DNA from: Escherichia coli
GTDB taxonomy: Bacteria > Pseudomonadota > Gammaproteobacteria > Enterobacterales > Enterobacteriaceae
DNA: 64,000 bases
Strand: one strand, 5' to 3'
NCBI RefSeq assembly: GCF_044324785.1
Contig: NZ_CP172127.1
Below the pieces are notes generated by a model that did not search any database, was not told where the DNA came from, and saw nothing but the letters and a program-made list of their open reading frames with translations. Numbering within the stretch: the first letter of the stretch is position 1; each line of letters starts with the position of its first letter. Positions 41,995 through 57,116 of this stretch are shown one piece after another. The translations under genes were made by a program, and so were the position numbers.

Positions 41995-42289
41995 AGAAAG
42001 TTATCCTGAAAATGGTTCACTGAAAACCTACGACGTTATGGCTGTATTTACATATAATTAATCAGTATTTACATCGATATAATAAATGACATCTCTTTTT
42101 GGTATATAAGAATAGTTCTCTGTGACAGGAAGCATATTCCTACAATTGTAAGACTAAAATACTTCTTGCGATAATAACTACAGCTGTAAGATAACCCTTT
42201 CAAAATGACCGTTGCTCTCTGATTTCTCATTTCATGCTCACCCAATATGATGGCGGCGTTTTCTAAAACTGTTAAAGAATGAGGTAAGT

Positions 42290-42922
42290 ATGAAACGTTT
42301 AATTATGGCTACGATGGTCACAGCAATTCTGGCATCTTCAACTGTATGGGCGGCTGATAATGCACCGGTAGCGGCACAACAGCAAACTCAGCAAGTTCAG
42401 CAAACCCAGAAAACGGCAGCAGCAGAGCGTATCTCTGAACAAGGTTTATATGCGATGCGTGACGTGCAGGTAGCGCGCCTGGCTCTGTTTCATGGCGATC
42501 CGGAAAAGGCAAAAGAACTGACCAATGAAGCTTCAGCTTTGTTGTCAGATGACAGTACCGAATGGGCAAAGTTCGCTAAGCCAGGTAAAAAGACCAATCT
42601 CAATGATGACCAATATATTGTCATTAATGCATCTGTCGGAATTTCTGAGAGTTATGTAGCGACACCCGAAAAAGAAGCCGCGATAAAAATTGCCAACGAA
42701 AAAATGGCGAAAGGGGATAAAAAGGGCGCAATGGAAGAGCTTCGCCTGGCCGGTGTTGGCGTAATGGAAAACCAATATCTGATGCCGCTTAAACAGACTC
42801 GTAATGCACTTGCTGATGCGCAGAAACTGCTTGATAAAAAGCAATACTACGAGGCAAACCTGGCGCTTAAAGGTGCTGAAGATGGAATCATCGTCGATAG
42901 CGAAGCACTGTTTGTGAACTAA
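42290..42922 (+). CDS. yfdX: periplasmic YfdX-family protein
   Basis: 210 aa, signal peptide [21 protein letters not shown]. Confidence 0.88.
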
Positions 42923-43446
42923 AGCTGACAGGCAATATATTGAGGTAAAGGATTTAACTCCCTCCAGCCGACAATTTTTTATGACCACAATACGACAGGT
43001 TGTGGTCATAAAATTATTTGGCGCTCGCGGTTCTATAAACTCGCATTTTATCTTCCTCAAAGTAACCCGCAATAATTCCGTGTCATCACAAATCATTTAT
43101 TATGTTATGCTTTATGGTACGCTTTAAAAAGCGTAATCATACCCTTACTTGTAAATCACCGGCGCTTCTTACAGTTGTAAGAATAACATCACAAATGTCG
43201 CGGCTCTCTCTGATTACCGCGAACCAATATTTATCATATTCTTCTTTTCGTCCTCACTACTTACCATGCAGAAAGGAATTGGAAGTGGCGATGAAATGAT
43301 TATCAGCACTTGATACAGGAATTTAAAAATATCGAGTGCAGCTACGACGATATTTTGCGGATTATTTATAGAGAGCGTTATGCCTTAAATAAACGCTAAA
43401 TTAACATATATTTAATTAACTAATAGGTATTGCTATGTCAACTCCA

Positions 43447-43455: not shown

Positions 43456-43473
43456 GGCTTTGTTGAATAAATC
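43456..43473. repeat. IS903 left terminal inverted repeat
   Basis: ggctttgttgaataaatc. Confidence 0.9.
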
Positions 43474-43511
43474 AGATTTCGGGTAAGTCTCCCCCGTAGC
43501 GGGTTGTGTTT

Positions 43512-44480
43512 TCAGGCAATACGCACGCTTTCAGGCATACCTGCTTTCGTCATTTTGTTCAGCGCTCGTACCAGGGCCATAGCCTCCGCAACCTGACCAT
43601 CGTAGTCACGCAGCGTCAGTGAACCCCCGAACAGCTGTTTTACCCGGTACATCGCCGTTTCCGCTATCGAGCGACGGTTGTAATCTGTTGTCCATTTCCA
43701 CCGCGCATTACTCCCGGTCATTCGCTGATTAGCCACTGCACGGTTACGGTCTGCATATTCACCGGGCCAGTAACCCGCACCTTTTCGGGGAGGGATAAGC
43801 GCGCTGATTTTCTTACGCCGCAGTTCATCGTGACATAGCCGGGTATCGTAAGCGCCATCGGCGGCGGCTGACCTGATTTTCCGGTGGGTTTGCCGGATTA
43901 ACCCGGGGAAGGCCTCTGAGTCCGTAACGTTGTTCAGCGACAGGTCAGCGCAGATGATTTCATGTGTTTTACTGTCAACGGCGAGATGCAGCTTACGCCA
44001 GATACGGCGGCGTTCCTGGCCATGCTTTTTGACTTTCCACTCGCCTTCACCGAAGACCTTCAGCCCGGTGGAATCAATTACCAGGTGTGCGATTTCACCC
44101 CGGGTGGGCGTTTTGAAACTGACATTAACCGACTTTGCCCGCCTGCTGACACAGCTGTAATCCGGGCAGCGTAGCGGAACGTTCATCAGAGAAAAAATGG
44201 AATCAATAAAGCCCTGCGCAGCCCGCAGGGTCAGCCTGAATACGCGTTTAATGACCAGCACAGTAGTGATGGCAAGGTCAGAATAGCGCTGAGGTCTGCC
44301 TCGTGAAGAAGGTGTTGCTGACTCATACCAGGCCTGAATAGCTTCATCATCCAGCCAGAAAGTTATGGAGCCACGGTTGATGAGGGCTTTATTGTAGGTG
44401 GGCCAGTTGGTGATTTTGAACTTTTGCTTTGCCACGGAACGGTCTGCGTTGTCGGGAAGATACGTGATCTGATCCTTCAA
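43512..44480 (-). CDS. IS903-group transposase (DDE)
   Basis: 322-aa ORF filling the IS; IS5/IS903-type transposase sequence. Confidence 0.9.
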
Positions 44481-44494
44481 CTCAGCAAAAGTTC

Positions 44495-44512
44495 GATTTA
44501 TTCAACAAAGCC
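44495..44512. repeat. IS903 right terminal inverted repeat
   Basis: gatttattcaacaaagcc, reverse complement of the left IR. Confidence 0.9.
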
Positions 44513-49786: not shown

Positions 49787-52700
49787 TTAGTCATTTTGTT
49801 GACAGAAAACAGCAATCTCCTGGTCTAACTCTGCAATGTGTTCTTTAACAGAGTTCAGCAACTTAAGAATTTCAGGCTTGCTGTCATCTGAAACGGGCGT
49901 TATTTCTAACTGATGGCTAATATTAATCAACTTTTGCAAATTCAGGATGTTAGCCGCACCGTGGATGCGATGAATACACTGATGGAAAGTTCTGTTGTCG
50001 CCAGCTTCTAGTGCATGAAACGCAGCGGGTAGATCTTTATGCGTTTCATGCTGGAAAGTCATGAGAATCTCCTGCATCAGTTGTAGATCGTTCGCCGTAT
50101 TATTTTTCAGGGCCTCGATATCAAGGTGGCGATACTGAGGTGCAATATGCGCAACCTGGTGTAACTGACTTAAATGTGTTTTCAGTACATCCAGGGTCAA
50201 CGGTTTGAACAAACATAAGTTCATGCCGCAATTTAACCCTTTTTCACGTTCGTTAGCCTGTGCGTTGGCTGTAAGCCCCCAGATGGGTAAGGAAGAATTT
50301 TGCTCACGGAGTTTGCGAGTCAACTCAAAACCATCCATATTCGGCATATTAACGTCAGTAATAAGCAGATCATAATGTTGCATACTGACTTTGTGTAGCG
50401 CTTGCACACCATCAGTTGCTTCATCAACATCATATCCTAATAGGTTTAGCTGGCGTTTGAGTAATAGCCTGTTGGTCGGATGATCATCCGCTATTAATAT
50501 GCTCAACTTTTCAGGGAGTGTCATAGGTTGTTCTGCTTTTGCCTCGACAGTCGCCACTTGTTGGGTAATTTCTACCGGGATTGTGATCGTAAATGTCGTT
50601 CCTATGCCTGGATGACTTTCTAATGATAAATCGCCCTGCATGTTTTTAATTAATTCTTTGCAGATCATTAAGCCTAAACCAGAACCTGTTTGCTGACGAC
50701 CTGCACTTGTTTGGCTATAGCGTTTAAACAGTTGTTGTTGTTCTTCCTGCGATAATCCACTTCCAGAATCCATAATCGTCATTTTGATAACAGCGTGGTT
50801 GTCATCAATGTGACCCAGGGAGGTCGTAATTTTTACTGCCCCCTCGGTAGTAAATTTAAGAGCATTGCTCAGTAAATTAGATAAGACCTGCTTAAACGCC
50901 TGAGGGTCGATCTTAACCTGGTAATGTTCTGGAAACGTACTGCTGCAACTTAATGCGATGGATTTGCTTGCAGCAATCGCACCGAAAGAGTGACAAGTGT
51001 TCTGGACTAAAGTAGGGATGTCGACCCATTGTGGTTGAAGTTGATAGTTACCCGACTCAATTTTGTCGACATCAAGGATTTCACCAATTAAGCCGAGGAG
51101 TGATTGTCCGGTGGCGTAGGCAAGTGAAATCGCCTCCACCCGTTGCTCCTTGCTAAGACCAGAACCCGACAGAAGTTCGAGGAAGCCCATAATGGAGCTT
51201 ATTGGTGTTCTTATTTCGTGACTCATTGTTGCCAGAAACTGGCTTTTTGCGACAGTTGCATTGATCGCTTTATTTCTCTCTACTTCGAGTGCATGAATTA
51301 AATCACGCGTCTCGGTAATATCTTGCCAACCACAAATATAAACAGCATGATCGCTGGCTGGCAGATTGCATAATGTATGCCAGTGATTAATGCATCTTTT
51401 CTCGATGCCATTATCAATTTCAAATACCTGTGTGTATATTGTTCGATTTTCTTTCGTTTCTGCTGTGACTTCATGCGCATTAGAAAAAACATCTTTAAAG
51501 GGTGAGTCACTGTTTTCTAATGGTAACATTGCATTTTTGTAGTAATCCGCAGTGAAATAATGTTCAAAAGCACTATTATGACTAATGACATTACCTTGCC
51601 AGTTTACAACATAAGTTGGATTCGGTAAGGAATCCGAGAGTGCTTTTCGGAATGATATTTGGTTTTCTAAATCACCCTGAATGACTTTACGACGACGAAC
51701 TGAGCGTAACAGGTAGAATCCCCATAAAAGGCTACTGCCAACTAATAAAACGGATAATGTCGTGACAATATAAAATTGCTCGCTATAGAGGTCCCATGTG
51801 TCAATGGTCACATTGGGCATTTTAATCCATTTTTCCGTCAGGCGCAGAACTTCGCTTGGGGGAATTGCATTCAGTGCTTTATTAATAATATCCTTAAGTT
51901 CCGGTTCTCCGCGAGGAAAAGCGAACGAAAGCGATGCATTCTGAACGCCGGGAATAAGAAAATGATAAAGTTCATTAGGATAGTAATGGTCGATCATGTA
52001 ACGCGAATTTAGCTGTGTCGCGACCAGAGCATCAAGTTCACCTTCCTTGACCTTGTGAAATGCAGCACTAGCGTTATCGACTTTTATCCACTCTACCTCC
52101 GGATACATCTCTTTTAATTGCGAATGAAGCTCATAATAATATGGAATGGCAACTTTCATTCCTTTTTTTAATGTTTGTTCACTGTCAGGCGCTTTTTGCA
52201 TGACAAAAACGTAAGGCGTTGTTATGAAGGCTTCAGCAAATGAAACATTATTTTCTCGATCTTCACTATAAATAGCGGCGGGCAATATATCCCATCCACC
52301 GGGGTTAAGCTGTGTCCCCGCATGAATATTGTGTGAAACGGTGATCGGAGAAAAATTTAAACCTGTTTGCAAGGTAATAATATTAAGAATATCACCCATC
52401 ACGCCCCGAACTGAGCCAGTTTCATCTGTCATAGAATAGGGTGGCGAGTAAGGATTTTCCAGCACCTTTAAATCGGGATGCTGCTTAATCCACTGTTTTT
52501 CATGTTCAGTGAGTTCTAATGGTTTGTTCAGAAAGGCCAGGTTTCCTGTATCAAGCCAATTTTGTGATACTTCATAGCGAACTTCATTTGTTAAAGCATC
52601 AACAAACCGATTGAGTACTTCATTAAGAACGACTGAATCTTTTCTGGTTAAGAAAAAGTTATATTGACGCGGCGAGTTATAATATTTCACTACATTTAAG

Positions 52701-53380
52701 GAGTGAGTGAAATAGCGGGAAATCATACTGCTGGTAATAATGTTACTACCAATAAAGTAATCATTCTGTCCGGCTGAGACGGATGCTAATGCCTGATATA
52801 AATTTGTAAAAGAGATAATTGTTGCTTTTGGAAATGATTGATGAATTACCTCGTCTGGAGGGTAATTTGCTACCCGAGCAATATTTACTGGTTTTGATGA
52901 GGTAAGCGGTCTCATTGAATCGTGAAGGGTGGTGACCAGCGCCGGAAAGGTAATTATCAGCGGTTTGGTTGCAGCAATGTCATCATTAAGAGGCGGCGAA
53001 GCAACTAAATGTGATAACACTATATCGACTTCACCTTCTTCCAGCGCGTCCATTGCTTTTTGATGATCGGCGTATTCCCGGAGTGTTAATTTGATATTTA
53101 ACGCTCTTTTTAAAAGATTTAAATAATCAGCATTAATACCACGAACCCGTTGCTGCGAATCGGTATGCAACAACGTAGCCGTTTGGGACTTGTGTACTGC
53201 AATCACAAGATTTTTTTTGCTCGCTAACCAACGTAATTCCTTGTTGCTCAGACGTAGTGGATCAAGTGTGACACGGTTGTTACTACTGATGCCACGATAT
53301 TCGATGTAATCTTCGTCTGCGAAACTTATGGTCGACCAAAGACCACAACAGAGAAGAAAAATATAGGGTAAAAACTTCAT
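49787..53380 (-). CDS. evgS: hybrid sensor histidine kinase EvgS
   Basis: 1197 aa; tandem periplasmic solute-binding domains, TM, HisKA/HATPase, receiver, HPt. Confidence 0.95.
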   Translation of the reverse strand: MKFLPYIFLLCCGLWSTISFADEDYIEYRGISSNNRVTLDPLRLSNKELRWLASKKNLVIAVHKSQTATLLHTDSQQRVRGINADYLNLLKRALNIKLTLREYADHQKAMDALEEGEVDIVLSHLVASPPLNDDIAATKPLIITFPALVTTLHDSMRPLTSSKPVNIARVANYPPDEVIHQSFPKATIISFTNLYQALASVSAGQNDYFIGSNIITSSMISRYFTHSLNVVKYYNSPRQYNFFLTRKDSVVLNEVLNRFVDALTNEVRYEVSQNWLDTGNLAFLNKPLELTEHEKQWIKQHPDLKVLENPYSPPYSMTDETGSVRGVMGDILNIITLQTGLNFSPITVSHNIHAGTQLNPGGWDILPAAIYSEDRENNVSFAEAFITTPYVFVMQKAPDSEQTLKKGMKVAIPYYYELHSQLKEMYPEVEWIKVDNASAAFHKVKEGELDALVATQLNSRYMIDHYYPNELYHFLIPGVQNASLSFAFPRGEPELKDIINKALNAIPPSEVLRLTEKWIKMPNVTIDTWDLYSEQFYIVTTLSVLLVGSSLLWGFYLLRSVRRRKVIQGDLENQISFRKALSDSLPNPTYVVNWQGNVISHNSAFEHYFTADYYKNAMLPLENSDSPFKDVFSNAHEVTAETKENRTIYTQVFEIDNGIEKRCINHWHTLCNLPASDHAVYICGWQDITETRDLIHALEVERNKAINATVAKSQFLATMSHEIRTPISSIMGFLELLSGSGLSKEQRVEAISLAYATGQSLLGLIGEILDVDKIESGNYQLQPQWVDIPTLVQNTCHSFGAIAASKSIALSCSSTFPEHYQVKIDPQAFKQVLSNLLSNALKFTTEGAVKITTSLGHIDDNHAVIKMTIMDSGSGLSQEEQQQLFKRYSQTSAGRQQTGSGLGLMICKELIKNMQGDLSLESHPGIGTTFTITIPVEITQQVATVEAKAEQPMTLPEKLSILIADDHPTNRLLLKRQLNLLGYDVDEATDGVQALHKVSMQHYDLLITDVNMPNMDGFELTRKLREQNSSLPIWGLTANAQANEREKGLNCGMNLCLFKPLTLDVLKTHLSQLHQVAHIAPQYRHLDIEALKNNTANDLQLMQEILMTFQHETHKDLPAAFHALEAGDNRTFHQCIHRIHGAANILNLQKLINISHQLEITPVSDDSKPEILKLLNSVKEHIAELDQEIAVFCQQND

Positions 53381-53384
53381 GTGG

Positions 53385-53999
53385 TTAGCCGATTTTGTTA
53401 CGTTGTGCGAATGTGTAAAGATCCATCAGTGATTTACATTCTAATTTTTCCATCAGGCGACTTTTATAAGTGCTGACAGTTTTGTTGCTGATGAACATTT
53501 TTTCAGCAATGTCATTATTATCCTTGCCATCAAGAATATATCGCATGACACTAATTTCTTGTTTCGATAAGGAGTCGAGTTTTTGCTGGTCGGACGTTAA
53601 ACTTCCAACAAACCGGTTGAGAGAGAAGGGGAAATAGCAGTAGCCATTTTTTGCAGCTTCAATAGCCGCAATGATATTGTTCATGCCTTCTTTTTTACTC
53701 ACGAATCCATTAGCGCCAGCATCAGCACAATGTTTCCCGTAAAAATGGTCATTTTTAGCGGAGACGATAATAATAATTCCGCTATATTGACGCTTCCTTA
53801 GCGTTTCTAACACCTGGATACCGTTAACTCCGGGGATATCGACATCAATGATGACGATATCAGGCTTAAGTGTTTCCACCCGCTGAACGGCGCTTCCGCC
53901 TTCAGTCAACTCTGCTAAGATTTCAATATCGTTTTTGATCAATAAATTACGAATAGCTGCGATAGCAAGAGGATGGTCATCAATAATTATTGCGTTCAT
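53385..53999 (-). CDS. evgA: response regulator EvgA (NarL/FixJ family)
   Basis: 204 aa; receiver domain plus LuxR-type HTH. Confidence 0.95.
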   Translation of the reverse strand: MNAIIIDDHPLAIAAIRNLLIKNDIEILAELTEGGSAVQRVETLKPDIVIIDVDIPGVNGIQVLETLRKRQYSGIIIIVSAKNDHFYGKHCADAGANGFVSKKEGMNNIIAAIEAAKNGYCYFPFSLNRFVGSLTSDQQKLDSLSKQEISVMRYILDGKDNNDIAEKMFISNKTVSTYKSRLMEKLECKSLMDLYTFAQRNKIG

Positions 54000-54223
54000 A
54001 GATTATTCCCTTTGCAATGAAGCATCTCCCTTCTCCCTGTAGTAATACAGACATAAGGCATCATCTCATTTTCTCAATAAAAATAAGAAAATTTGAGCTT
54101 CCTTTAAGATAATTCGACAAGTATACCATATAAATAGTCGGCATAAATGAAATGTCAACAATAAAATCAGGGATTGTACCGATGATTTATAGTTTCACAT
54201 TAGCACTATAAGTCTTCTCACTA

Positions 54224-54241
54224 ATCCTACAGGCGTAAGAA
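54224..54241. promoter_or_regulatory. candidate EvgA box (18-bp imperfect inverted repeat) in evgA-emrK divergent intergenic region
   Basis: aTCCTACAggCGTAAGAA, resembling the reported EvgA half-site TTCPyTACA in inverted orientation. Confidence 0.45.
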
Positions 54242-54414
54242 TTGTATTGCAAAAGCCACGGTTTAGTCCTCTGTTGTTTCTTTTGCACCTCATTTAAATT
54301 AGGCCTCCAACGTTCCTGGGATAATGTGCAACACATGCACTGTGTTTGATATGAAGAATGAATACTCTTTTCATTCAATTCATAAATTTCATCTATGCGA
54401 AATGAGAGATAATA

Positions 54415-55578
54415 GTGGAACAGATTGATTCAAATAAAAAACATTCTAACAGAAGAAAATACTTTTCTTTATTGGCGGTAGTTTTATTTATTGCGTTTTC
54501 AGGTGCCTATGCCTATTGGTCAATGGAATTAGAAGACATGATTAGTACAGATGACGCCTATGTCACGGGGAATGCAGATCCAATTTCTGCACAAGTTTCA
54601 GGCAGCGTCACTGTCGTTAATCATAAAGATACGAACTACGTTCGACAGGGTGACATTTTAGTCTCACTGGATAAGACTGATGCCACTATCGCACTCAATA
54701 AAGCTAAAAATAATCTGGCCAATATTGTTCGGCAAACGAATAAACTGTACTTACAGGATAAACAATACAGTGCCGAAGTCGCTTCAGCACGTATTCAGTA
54801 TCAACAATCTTTAGAAGATTATAACCGTCGTGTACCTTTAGCGAAGCAGGGGGTTATTTCAAAAGAAACGCTGGAGCATACCAAAGATACGTTAATAAGT
54901 AGCAAAGCGGCATTGAATGCTGCTATTCAGGCTTATAAAGCGAATAAAGCTTTAGTAATGAACACACCATTAAACCGTCAGCCACAAGTCGTTGAAGCGG
55001 CGGATGCAACCAAAGAAGCCTGGTTAGCGCTTAAACGTACGGATATTAAGAGTCCTGTTACCGGCTATATTGCCCAGAGAAGCGTTCAGGTCGGCGAAAC
55101 AGTGAGTCCCGGACAATCGTTAATGGCTGTCGTACCGGCACGTCAAATGTGGGTTAATGCCAACTTTAAAGAAACACAACTTACGGATGTGCGGATTGGT
55201 CAATCGGTCAATATTATCAGCGATCTTTATGGTGAAAATGTTGTGTTTCATGGTCGGGTGACAGGGATCAATATGGGAACCGGCAATGCGTTCTCCTTAT
55301 TACCTGCACAAAATGCGACAGGGAATTGGATCAAAATCGTTCAGCGTGTACCGGTTGAGGTTTCTCTTGATCCAAAAGAACTCATGGAACATCCCTTGCG
55401 TATTGGTTTATCGATGACTGCAACTATTGATACCAGGAACGAAGACATTGCCGAGATGCCCGATCTGGCTTCAACCGTGACGTCCATGCCTGCTTATACC
55501 AGTAAGGCTTTAGTTATCGATACCAGTCCGATAGAAAAAGAAATTAGCAACATTATTTCGCATAATGGACAACTTTAA
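54415..55578 (+). CDS. emrK: multidrug efflux membrane fusion protein (EmrA paralog)
   Basis: 387 aa HlyD-family periplasmic adaptor; stop overlaps emrY start. Confidence 0.92.
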   Translation: MEQIDSNKKHSNRRKYFSLLAVVLFIAFSGAYAYWSMELEDMISTDDAYVTGNADPISAQVSGSVTVVNHKDTNYVRQGDILVSLDKTDATIALNKAKNNLANIVRQTNKLYLQDKQYSAEVASARIQYQQSLEDYNRRVPLAKQGVISKETLEHTKDTLISSKAALNAAIQAYKANKALVMNTPLNRQPQVVEAADATKEAWLALKRTDIKSPVTGYIAQRSVQVGETVSPGQSLMAVVPARQMWVNANFKETQLTDVRIGQSVNIISDLYGENVVFHGRVTGINMGTGNAFSLLPAQNATGNWIKIVQRVPVEVSLDPKELMEHPLRIGLSMTATIDTRNEDIAEMPDLASTVTSMPAYTSKALVIDTSPIEKEISNIISHNGQL

Positions 55579-57116
55579 TGGCAATCACTAAATCAACTCC
55601 GGCACCATTAACTGGTGGGACGTTATGGTGCGTCACTATTGCATTGTCATTAGCGACGTTTATGCAAATGTTGGATTCCACTATTTCTAACGTCGCAATA
55701 CCGACAATATCTGGATTTCTGGGAGCATCAACAGACGAAGGCACCTGGGTTATCACTTCGTTTGGCGTAGCAAATGCCATTGCGATCCCTGTTACCGGCA
55801 GGCTGGCACAAAGAATAGGCGAATTAAGATTATTTTTACTTTCAGTAACCTTTTTTTCGCTGTCTTCATTAATGTGTAGTTTATCGACCAATCTTGATGT
55901 GCTGATATTTTTTAGAGTCGTTCAGGGGTTAATGGCGGGGCCGTTAATTCCACTGTCACAGAGTTTATTATTAAGGAATTATCCACCAGAAAAAAGAACA
56001 TTTGCTCTGGCATTATGGTCTATGACCGTGATTATCGCTCCGATATGTGGGCCGATATTGGGCGGCTATATTTGTGATAACTTTAGTTGGGGCTGGATAT
56101 TTTTAATCAATGTCCCTATGGGGATTATCGTCCTGACATTATGCTTAACCTTACTTAAAGGAAGAGAAACTGAGACTTCACCGGTCAAAATGAATCTACC
56201 AGGACTGACCCTGTTAGTGCTCGGTGTTGGTGGCTTGCAAATTATGCTTGATAAAGGTCGTGATCTGGATTGGTTCAACTCGAGTACAATAATAATATTA
56301 ACAGTGGTATCAGTTATTTCTCTGATCTCTTTAGTCATTTGGGAGTCGACCTCAGAGAATCCGATTCTTGATCTCAGTTTGTTTAAGTCCCGTAATTTCA
56401 CCATTGGTATTGTGAGTATCACATGCGCGTATTTATTTTACTCTGGGGCGATAGTCCTTATGCCGCAGTTACTCCAGGAAACGATGGGGTATAATGCGAT
56501 ATGGGCCGGACTTGCTTATGCGCCCATCGGCATCATGCCGCTATTAATTTCACCTTTGATAGGACGTTATGGCAACAAAATAGACATGCGGTTGTTAGTG
56601 ACATTTAGTTTTTTGATGTATGCGGTTTGCTATTACTGGCGTTCTGTGACATTTATGCCAACGATTGATTTTACAGGCATCATTTTGCCACAGTTTTTTC
56701 AGGGATTCGCCGTCGCCTGTTTCTTTTTACCCTTAACAACGATTTCGTTTTCAGGTTTGCCAGATAATAAATTTGCCAATGCCTCGAGTATGAGTAATTT
56801 TTTTCGTACCTTGTCAGGATCAGTTGGTACGTCGTTGACAATGACGCTGTGGGGACGCCGAGAATCATTACACCATAGTCAGTTGACAGCAACAATCGAT
56901 CAATTTAACCCCGTGTTTAATTCATCGTCACAAATTATGGATAAATATTATGGTTCGCTTTCAGGGGTTCTTAATGAAATTAATAATGAAATAACTCAGC
57001 AGTCACTTTCAATTTCTGCAAATGAGATTTTCCGTATGGCGGCTATTGCTTTTATCTTACTTACGGTATTGGTTTGGTTTGCGAAACCGCCGTTTACAGC
57101 GAAAGGTGTTGGGTGA
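55578..57116 (+). CDS. emrY: MFS multidrug efflux pump (EmrB paralog)
   Basis: 512 aa, 14-TM major facilitator. Confidence 0.92.
   Translation: MAITKSTPAPLTGGTLWCVTIALSLATFMQMLDSTISNVAIPTISGFLGASTDEGTWVITSFGVANAIAIPVTGRLAQRIGELRLFLLSVTFFSLSSLMCSLSTNLDVLIFFRVVQGLMAGPLIPLSQSLLLRNYPPEKRTFALALWSMTVIIAPICGPILGGYICDNFSWGWIFLINVPMGIIVLTLCLTLLKGRETETSPVKMNLPGLTLLVLGVGGLQIMLDKGRDLDWFNSSTIIILTVVSVISLISLVIWESTSENPILDLSLFKSRNFTIGIVSITCAYLFYSGAIVLMPQLLQETMGYNAIWAGLAYAPIGIMPLLISPLIGRYGNKIDMRLLVTFSFLMYAVCYYWRSVTFMPTIDFTGIILPQFFQGFAVACFFLPLTTISFSGLPDNKFANASSMSNFFRTLSGSVGTSLTMTLWGRRESLHHSQLTATIDQFNPVFNSSSQIMDKYYGSLSGVLNEINNEITQQSLSISANEIFRMAAIAFILLTVLVWFAKPPFTAKGVG

Follow-up and report, generated by a model that had tools for sequence, protein, structure and literature searches.

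In Bordetella, the GerE-type regulator BvgA binds at fha and ptx as a dimer to an inverted repeat of TTTCCTA-like half-sites, which is located well upstream of the promoter. Several BvgA dimers are lined up at these promoters with a period of 22 bp, reaching down to position -46.5. BvgS is the ortholog of EvgS (PMC5706723). For the EvgAS system of Escherichia coli, direct regulation of emrKY together with binding of EvgA at the emrKY promoter region has been described (PMC9496106, PMC8350985, PMC5706723, all citing Kato et al. 2000), and every gene known as directly EvgA-regulated has an EvgA site (PMC4283999). Either a pH of 5.7 or evgS1 induces PemrK reporters, and this induction requires evgA/evgAS (PMC5706723; PMC6393483). 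Genomic-SELEX data for EvgA exist in RegulonDB-HT (PMC10949920).

Work on the emrKY-evgAS control region dates back to about 2000, and PemrK serves routinely to report EvgS activity. The present analysis adds little new biology. The sequence that had been flagged in a preliminary description very probably corresponds to the already known EvgA operator of this region, in which case a reader of the sequence alone had located a real operator. The predicted start and geometry of the emrK promoter and the invariant flank positions of six EvgA promoters are the sole new elements.

The EvgA box in the evgA-emrK spacer

The window analysed here, a stretch of 64,000 nt of E. coli DNA, contains the evgS-evgA / emrK-emrY locus. 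The minus strand carries evgS (49787-53380) and evgA (53385-53999, ATG at 53999), whose product is a response regulator that combines a receiver domain with an HTH of the GerE/LuxR type. On the plus strand, emrK (54415-55578, GTG start at 54415) is the first gene of emrKY and encodes the membrane-fusion subunit of the EmrKY-TolC pump, followed by emrY (55578-57116). Over 601 bp around the spacer the sequence agrees with that of strain N3 at every position (100% identity), and this stretch is carried by 5398 of 5426 complete E. coli genomes. The spacer of K-12 MG1655 (NC_000913.3 2483340-2483754) could be aligned without gaps at 97.8% identity and has the identical EvgA box; coordinates were converted as K-12 = 2537754 - window.

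The spacer between evgA and emrK spans 415 bp (54000-54414) and had been described as AT-rich, in agreement with its GC content of 34.0%. The value is 49.1% for the whole window and 40-42% for evgS, evgA, emrK and emrY; the spacer is therefore AT-rich within a locus that is already AT-rich. The label "intergenic" holds insofar as this DNA separates the divergent genes evgA (minus) and emrK (plus), but it overlaps evgL (K-12 b4781; 53996-54025, minus strand), an annotated leader ORF of nine codons (MLHCKGNNL) whose stop codon overlaps the evgA ATG.

For evgA, leaders from -124 to +8 and from -114 to +7 have been reported, with the evgL ATG at +89 (PMC11210196). The promoter belonging to the -124 start (54123) is found at 54131-54158 on the minus strand and consists of a -35 element TTGACA (54158-54153), a 16-bp spacer and a -10 element TATTTA (54136-54131). 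In an alignment of six spacer sequences this -10 (TAAATA on the opposite strand) is invariant and the -35 region is largely conserved. The second promoter, with the -114 start (54113), occupies 54113-54128 on the minus strand and has the extended -10 TGGTATACT (54128-54120). The evgA 5' leader (54000-54123, minus strand) contains four GGA motifs and is bound by CsrA, and translation of evgA requires translation of evgL, through which it is coupled to CsrA control (PMC11210196). With two evgA promoters, a CsrA-bound leader and evgL, the spacer is not purely non-coding and also encodes the evgL/CsrA translational control module. An Rfam search of 53800-54800 gave no match at E <= 1.

The preliminary description had placed an imperfect inverted repeat of the EvgA half-site about 175 bp upstream of emrK. 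We found ATCCTACAGGCGTAAGAA exactly at 54224-54241 (K-12 2483513-2483530, without strand assignment), an imperfect inverted repeat of 18 bp that is separated by 173 nt from the emrK GTG. It differs at two positions from the consensus TTCYTACA-N2-TGTARGAA, which reportedly goes back to Masuda and Church in 2003 and was also re-derived in this analysis from six loci. Compared with TTCYTACANNTGTARGAA, 14 of the 16 specified positions agree, and the two mismatches are an A instead of T at position 1 and a C instead of T at position 11; with both repaired, the emrK box would read TTCCTACAGGTGTAAGAA.

When up to three mismatches were allowed, TTCYTACANNTGTARGAA matched four times in the 64-kb window compared with 0.55 expected matches, and all four sit in promoter regions of EvgA-regulated genes, i.e. 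yfdX (two), frc and emrK. The EvgA-like boxes of yfdX (ATG at 42290) are located at 42137-42154 and 42175-42192, have one and three mismatches and are 38 bp apart from centre to centre, and the frc box at 43166-43183 (ATG at 43435) is perfect. The frc and yfdX promoters had been named before as part of the window, and together with evgSA and emrKY these boxes place it within the EvgAS acid-resistance and efflux neighbourhood, as proposed.

Many partial matches are to be expected in AT-rich DNA, and the box could in principle be a chance palindrome, with EvgA acting elsewhere in the spacer. This reading is extremely unlikely: a match with at most two mismatches arose in 0.065% of 20,000 spacer shuffles (p = 0.00065), the emrK box is the sole match with up to four mismatches in a 10-kb stretch of K-12 around the locus, and it falls within the spacer's most conserved block and has the same register as five other promoters (see below). 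In the literature examined, a text search for the literal box sequences or the half-site string returned no match. Transcription of the operon downstream of the box is EvgA/EvgS-dependent, as known from the PemrK data of K-12 with its identical box, and the box is very probably the functional EvgA site.

In the strain analysed, an IS903-type element of 1057 bp (43456-44512) is inserted directly after codon 7 of frc. The element has the inverted repeats GGCTTTGTTGAATAAATC, a transposase ORF on the minus strand (43512-44480, DDE_Tnp_1 domains) and a 9-bp target duplication, CTTCAAGGA, and is absent from strain N3. By the insertion, the rest of frc-oxc-yfdVE is cut off from the frc promoter with its perfect EvgA box.

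Conservation of the box

Relatives of the locus were found by scanning one genome per species with EvgA, which returned few close relatives. In the six-sequence alignment of the spacer, with identities down to 65%, 14 of 18 box columns are invariant compared with 56% of all spacer columns. The top-scoring 18-bp windows of this alignment are at 54235-54253 and overlap the box. Nowhere in the spacer is an invariant run longer than GTAAGAATTGTATT (54235-54248, 14 bp, no strand assigned), which comprises the emrK-proximal half-site and 7 bp of flanking DNA.

As this run reaches 7 bp past the EvgA box, the conserved block might be a composite site that serves a second GerE-type regulator in addition to EvgA. 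RcsB is detectable as a homologue of EvgA, and GTAAGAAT presumably resembles the left half of the RcsAB box. However, a right half-site for RcsB or GadE is not visible and the literature examined makes no mention of such a site, and we consider a composite site very improbable.

In SCPM-O-B-8794, a genome labelled E. coli and belonging to a cryptic lineage, EvgA is 98% and the spacer 86% identical, and a perfect box, TTCTTACACCTGTAGGAA, is present at the same position. Among the 5426 complete E. coli genomes, not one has this perfect-box allele. A divergent emrK/evgA arrangement is also present in Yersinia vastinensis IP38594 (590-kb contig, 1449-3615), with 94% identity for EvgA and 65% for the spacer; its box, TTCTTACACGTGTAGGCA, has one mismatch and the same position as the emrK box. 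The combination of a 94% identical EvgA and a retained box in Yersinia suggests that the whole module was horizontally transferred. A 29-bp deletion in the Yersinia vastinensis locus takes out the -114 evgA promoter.

Outside of these genomes, an Enterobacter MAG with an EvgA-like protein of 68% identity contains the palindrome TTCCTACGTCTGTAGTCC (CCTACG..TGTAG) in the DNA that separates a HlyD-family (EmrK-like) gene from the evgA-like gene. In Hafnia alvei (EvgA-like protein, 66%), where the evgA-like gene is next to a gene for an amino-acid permease, GTCCTACGTATGTAGGCG is found between the two. No box-like palindrome was detected in the DNA examined of the EvgA-like loci of Klebsiella (KvgA) and Buttiauxella. 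In orthologous loci the box is conserved in a way that indicates selection. Within the species, the box-centred 40-mer is present in 5038 of the 5398 E. coli genomes carrying the region and the adjacent 40-mers in 901 and 213; because these flanking 40-mers carry population-rare alleles, the counts measure polymorphism and not a neutral rate.

Two further observations were made during the genome comparison. In E. coli NCTC10444, an IS1A lies just beyond the evgA promoters (~54178 onward in the window) and fimbrial genes take the place of emrKY; this strain has no EvgA box any more but an intact evgAS with its proximal promoters. A 398-bp contig of Rhizobium cauense HU25 encodes part of an EvgA protein, with 100% identity to E. 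coli EvgA, which is almost certainly due to assembly contamination.

A register common to six EvgA promoters and the predicted emrK promoter

Six promoters were compared, all read in the direction of the target gene. The window provided emrK, yfdX box 2 and frc, and K-12 provided safA, ydeP and yegR. Counted from the end of the box, all of them have CA at +9/+10, TC at +26/+27 and T at +31. For a random register 0.24 invariant columns in 60 would be expected instead of these five, and none of 20,000 random registers reached five. With the comparison restricted to four unrelated promoters, the invariance was reached in 0.3-0.5% of random-register trials. A fixed register to the core promoter is therefore common to the EvgA promoters. 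On the other hand, the register may not be rigid, since the TTTAAACACTA block that ydeP and yegR have in common is shifted by 5 nt with respect to their boxes. Taken together, conservation in related loci and the register common to five other EvgA promoters indicate that the box is the EvgA site of the emrKY promoter.

In the emrK promoter, the invariant CA corresponds to 54250-54251 (plus strand) and possibly represents a secondary EvgA contact or a contact of alpha-CTD. The TC and T columns are part of TCCTCT (54267-54272, plus strand), are invariant in related loci as well, and would be located at about -40 to -35 of the predicted emrK promoter. At offsets 3-10 after the box, each of the six promoters agrees with a left half-site in 4-5 of 8 positions, and no right half follows. 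Between box and -35 region, the six promoters contain isolated invariant positions and no convincing secondary palindrome. For yfdX, the promoter-proximal box alone fits the register of the other EvgA promoters. Upstream of the box, emrK (54205-54212) and safA (K-12) have ACTATAAG at the same offset, -19 to -12; this octamer resembles the half-site TGTAAGAA and could be an auxiliary contact or a coincidence.

Downstream, the best summed sigma-70 -10 score over the six promoters was obtained at offset +54, with a marginal permutation p-value of 0.04. The hexamers at this offset are TAAATT, ATATTA, AATTTA, TATTAT, TATTCT and TATGAT, and a -10-like hexamer begins at +53/+54 after the box. The ydeP 5' leader begins 178 nt before the start codon (-178), a position listed as the start of a "5' leader" transcript and not explicitly as a mapped start site (PMC11210196). 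It is equivalent to offset 66 from the ydeP box and fits a -10 at +53/+54 as well as a box centre at -74.5. The gadE transcript in the list that gives the ydeP value is clearly shorter than the gadE leader.

By transferring the ydeP leader length via the six-promoter register, we predict the emrK -10 to be TTAAAT (54294-54299, plus strand), in which the T..AAT columns are invariant and the equivalent in Yersinia vastinensis is TAGAAT. Transcription would start at 54303-54310 (plus strand; K-12 2483444-2483451), giving a leader of about 105-112 nt, and on balance the box would be centred near -74.5 of the emrK promoter. The predicted -35 (TGTTGT) begins with the invariant T at 54272 and is poor, and the -10 is also weak.

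An alternative with the same box and the same regulator is a class II geometry, in which the box overlaps or abuts the -35, its centre is at -41.5 to -46.5 and transcription starts near 54274-54280 (K-12 2483474-2483480). The -10 would then be TTTAGT/TAGTCC (54262-54269) or TCCTCT (54267-54272). The arrangement is reminiscent of the promoter-proximal BvgA dimer at fha, which is said to be placed in this way. A centre at -41.5 with TTTAGT at 54262-54267 as -10 was initially favoured, supported by the hexamers at offset 21-26 (TTTAGT in emrK, TATAAT in yegR) and by the invariant TC..T (26-31) at a fixed distance in the six promoters. It was demoted because the ydeP start that follows from the leader length is at offset 66 and not at about 33-40. 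Furthermore, most hexamers at offset 21-31 lack the key -11 A, and the best summed -10 score is found at offset 54. We therefore regard a class II geometry as unlikely and retain the upstream position of the box near -74.5.

The start list of Kim et al. 2012 contains no start for emrK, yfdX, frc, ydeP, safA or yegR. A generic promoter scan returned nothing for emrK; its one plus-strand match is unrelated to either gene, and matches were fewer than in shuffles. Shuffled sequences fold as well as the predicted emrK leader does (z = -0.68). A terminator-like hairpin at 54326-54340 was rejected as a riboswitch or attenuator, having a stem of 5 bp that is not conserved in the Yersinia vastinensis locus.

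A published K-12 start maps inside emrK, to 54612 on the minus strand, antisense to the 5' coding region of emrK and 613 nt upstream of evgA, with a TTGTCG-17 bp-TATGAT promoter. In K-12 it is listed as NC_000913.2 2481164 +, and this distal start is the only one given on the evgA strand (Kim et al. 2012); in addition, a strong SELEX peak of the sigma-S holoenzyme has been found inside emrK (PMC5493296). Transcripts from 54612 would cross the emrK promoter and the EvgA box.

Proposed role of the box and comparison with related systems

Besides activating emrKY, the box might mainly or also serve as an autoregulatory operator of evgAS, acting from far upstream of the -124/-114 starts or via a third, unmapped evgA promoter. 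Reportedly, Tanabe et al. in 1998 and RegulonDB describe evgAS as positively autoregulated. The divergent layout would be compatible with such a role, as are the box-like palindromes upstream of the evgA-like genes in Hafnia and the Enterobacter MAG, which are found even with another divergent partner. Two invariant -10-like blocks, TACAAT (54178-54173; TACAAT/TATAAT in the alignment) and GAAACTATAA (54196-54187), are found on the way from the mapped evgA promoters to the box, so that an evgA promoter nearer to the box, as yet unmapped and possibly autoregulated, is conceivable. In contrast, the two mapped evgA starts are unusually far away, with the box centre at -109.5 relative to one and at -119.5 relative to the other, and the register of the six promoters is found on the emrK side and not on the evgA side. 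Moreover, NCTC10444 keeps an intact evgAS even though IS1 removed both box and emrKY, and macrophages induce emrK without a significant change of evgA (PMC6393483). Autoregulation through the box thus deserves some weight, short of an even chance.

The best explanation, which we hold with considerable confidence, is that the box is the primary operator for a dimer of EvgA~P and that EvgA~P activates the emrKY promoter. EvgA consists of receiver and GerE domains (solved structures 5f64 and 8zwn), with NarL as the next relative among solved structures; from the GerE/LuxR-type HTH and the kinship to NarL, binding as a dimer to an inverted repeat is to be expected. In the proposed mechanism, mild acid would activate EvgS, and the resulting EvgA~P, a NarL/FixJ-type regulator, would bind as a dimer to the box at 54224-54241. 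Box-bound EvgA~P would then activate the otherwise weak sigma-70 promoter of emrKY on the plus strand. A box near -74.5 would imply upstream, class I-like activation, and the conserved DNA between box and -35 may harbour further weak contacts of EvgA or alpha-CTD. The box may also feed back on evgAS.

More speculatively, EvgA promoters might share an extended architecture, a reading that we consider rather unlikely, in which a box at about -74.5 is combined with invariant contacts at about -57/-56 (CA), -40/-39 (TC) and -35 (T). We know of no description of such an architecture for EvgA. If it applies, EvgA~P would spread or recruit alpha-CTD between box and -35, as BvgA does. The two mismatches that are fixed in the E. 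coli emrK box and absent from the sister lineage would in this case restrict emrKY to high levels of EvgA~P.

BvgA promoters and EvgA promoters are alike in having conserved DNA between the primary site and the -35. In contrast to the BvgA array, the EvgA promoters contain isolated invariant dinucleotides instead of a convincing secondary palindrome. Among the EvgA targets themselves, ydeP, safA-ydeO, yegR, yfdX and frc/yfdWUVE carry the same 18-bp inverted repeat with 0-3 mismatches. With emrK they further have in common the CA (+9/+10), TC (+26/+27) and T (+31) columns as well as a -10-like hexamer some 53 nt downstream of the box. The emrK box is one of the more degenerate, with two mismatches including one beside the centre. 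It is the only EvgA box that is positioned in a divergent region shared with the gene of the regulator itself, whereas yfdX is distinguished by two boxes. Finally, the operators of NarL/FixJ-type regulators, such as the 7-2-7 site of NarL, are bound by members of the same family (Response_reg and GerE) and are likewise built from inverted half-sites with a 2-bp spacer; compared with NarL, the EvgA half-site has a different sequence and comprises 8 bp instead of 7 bp.
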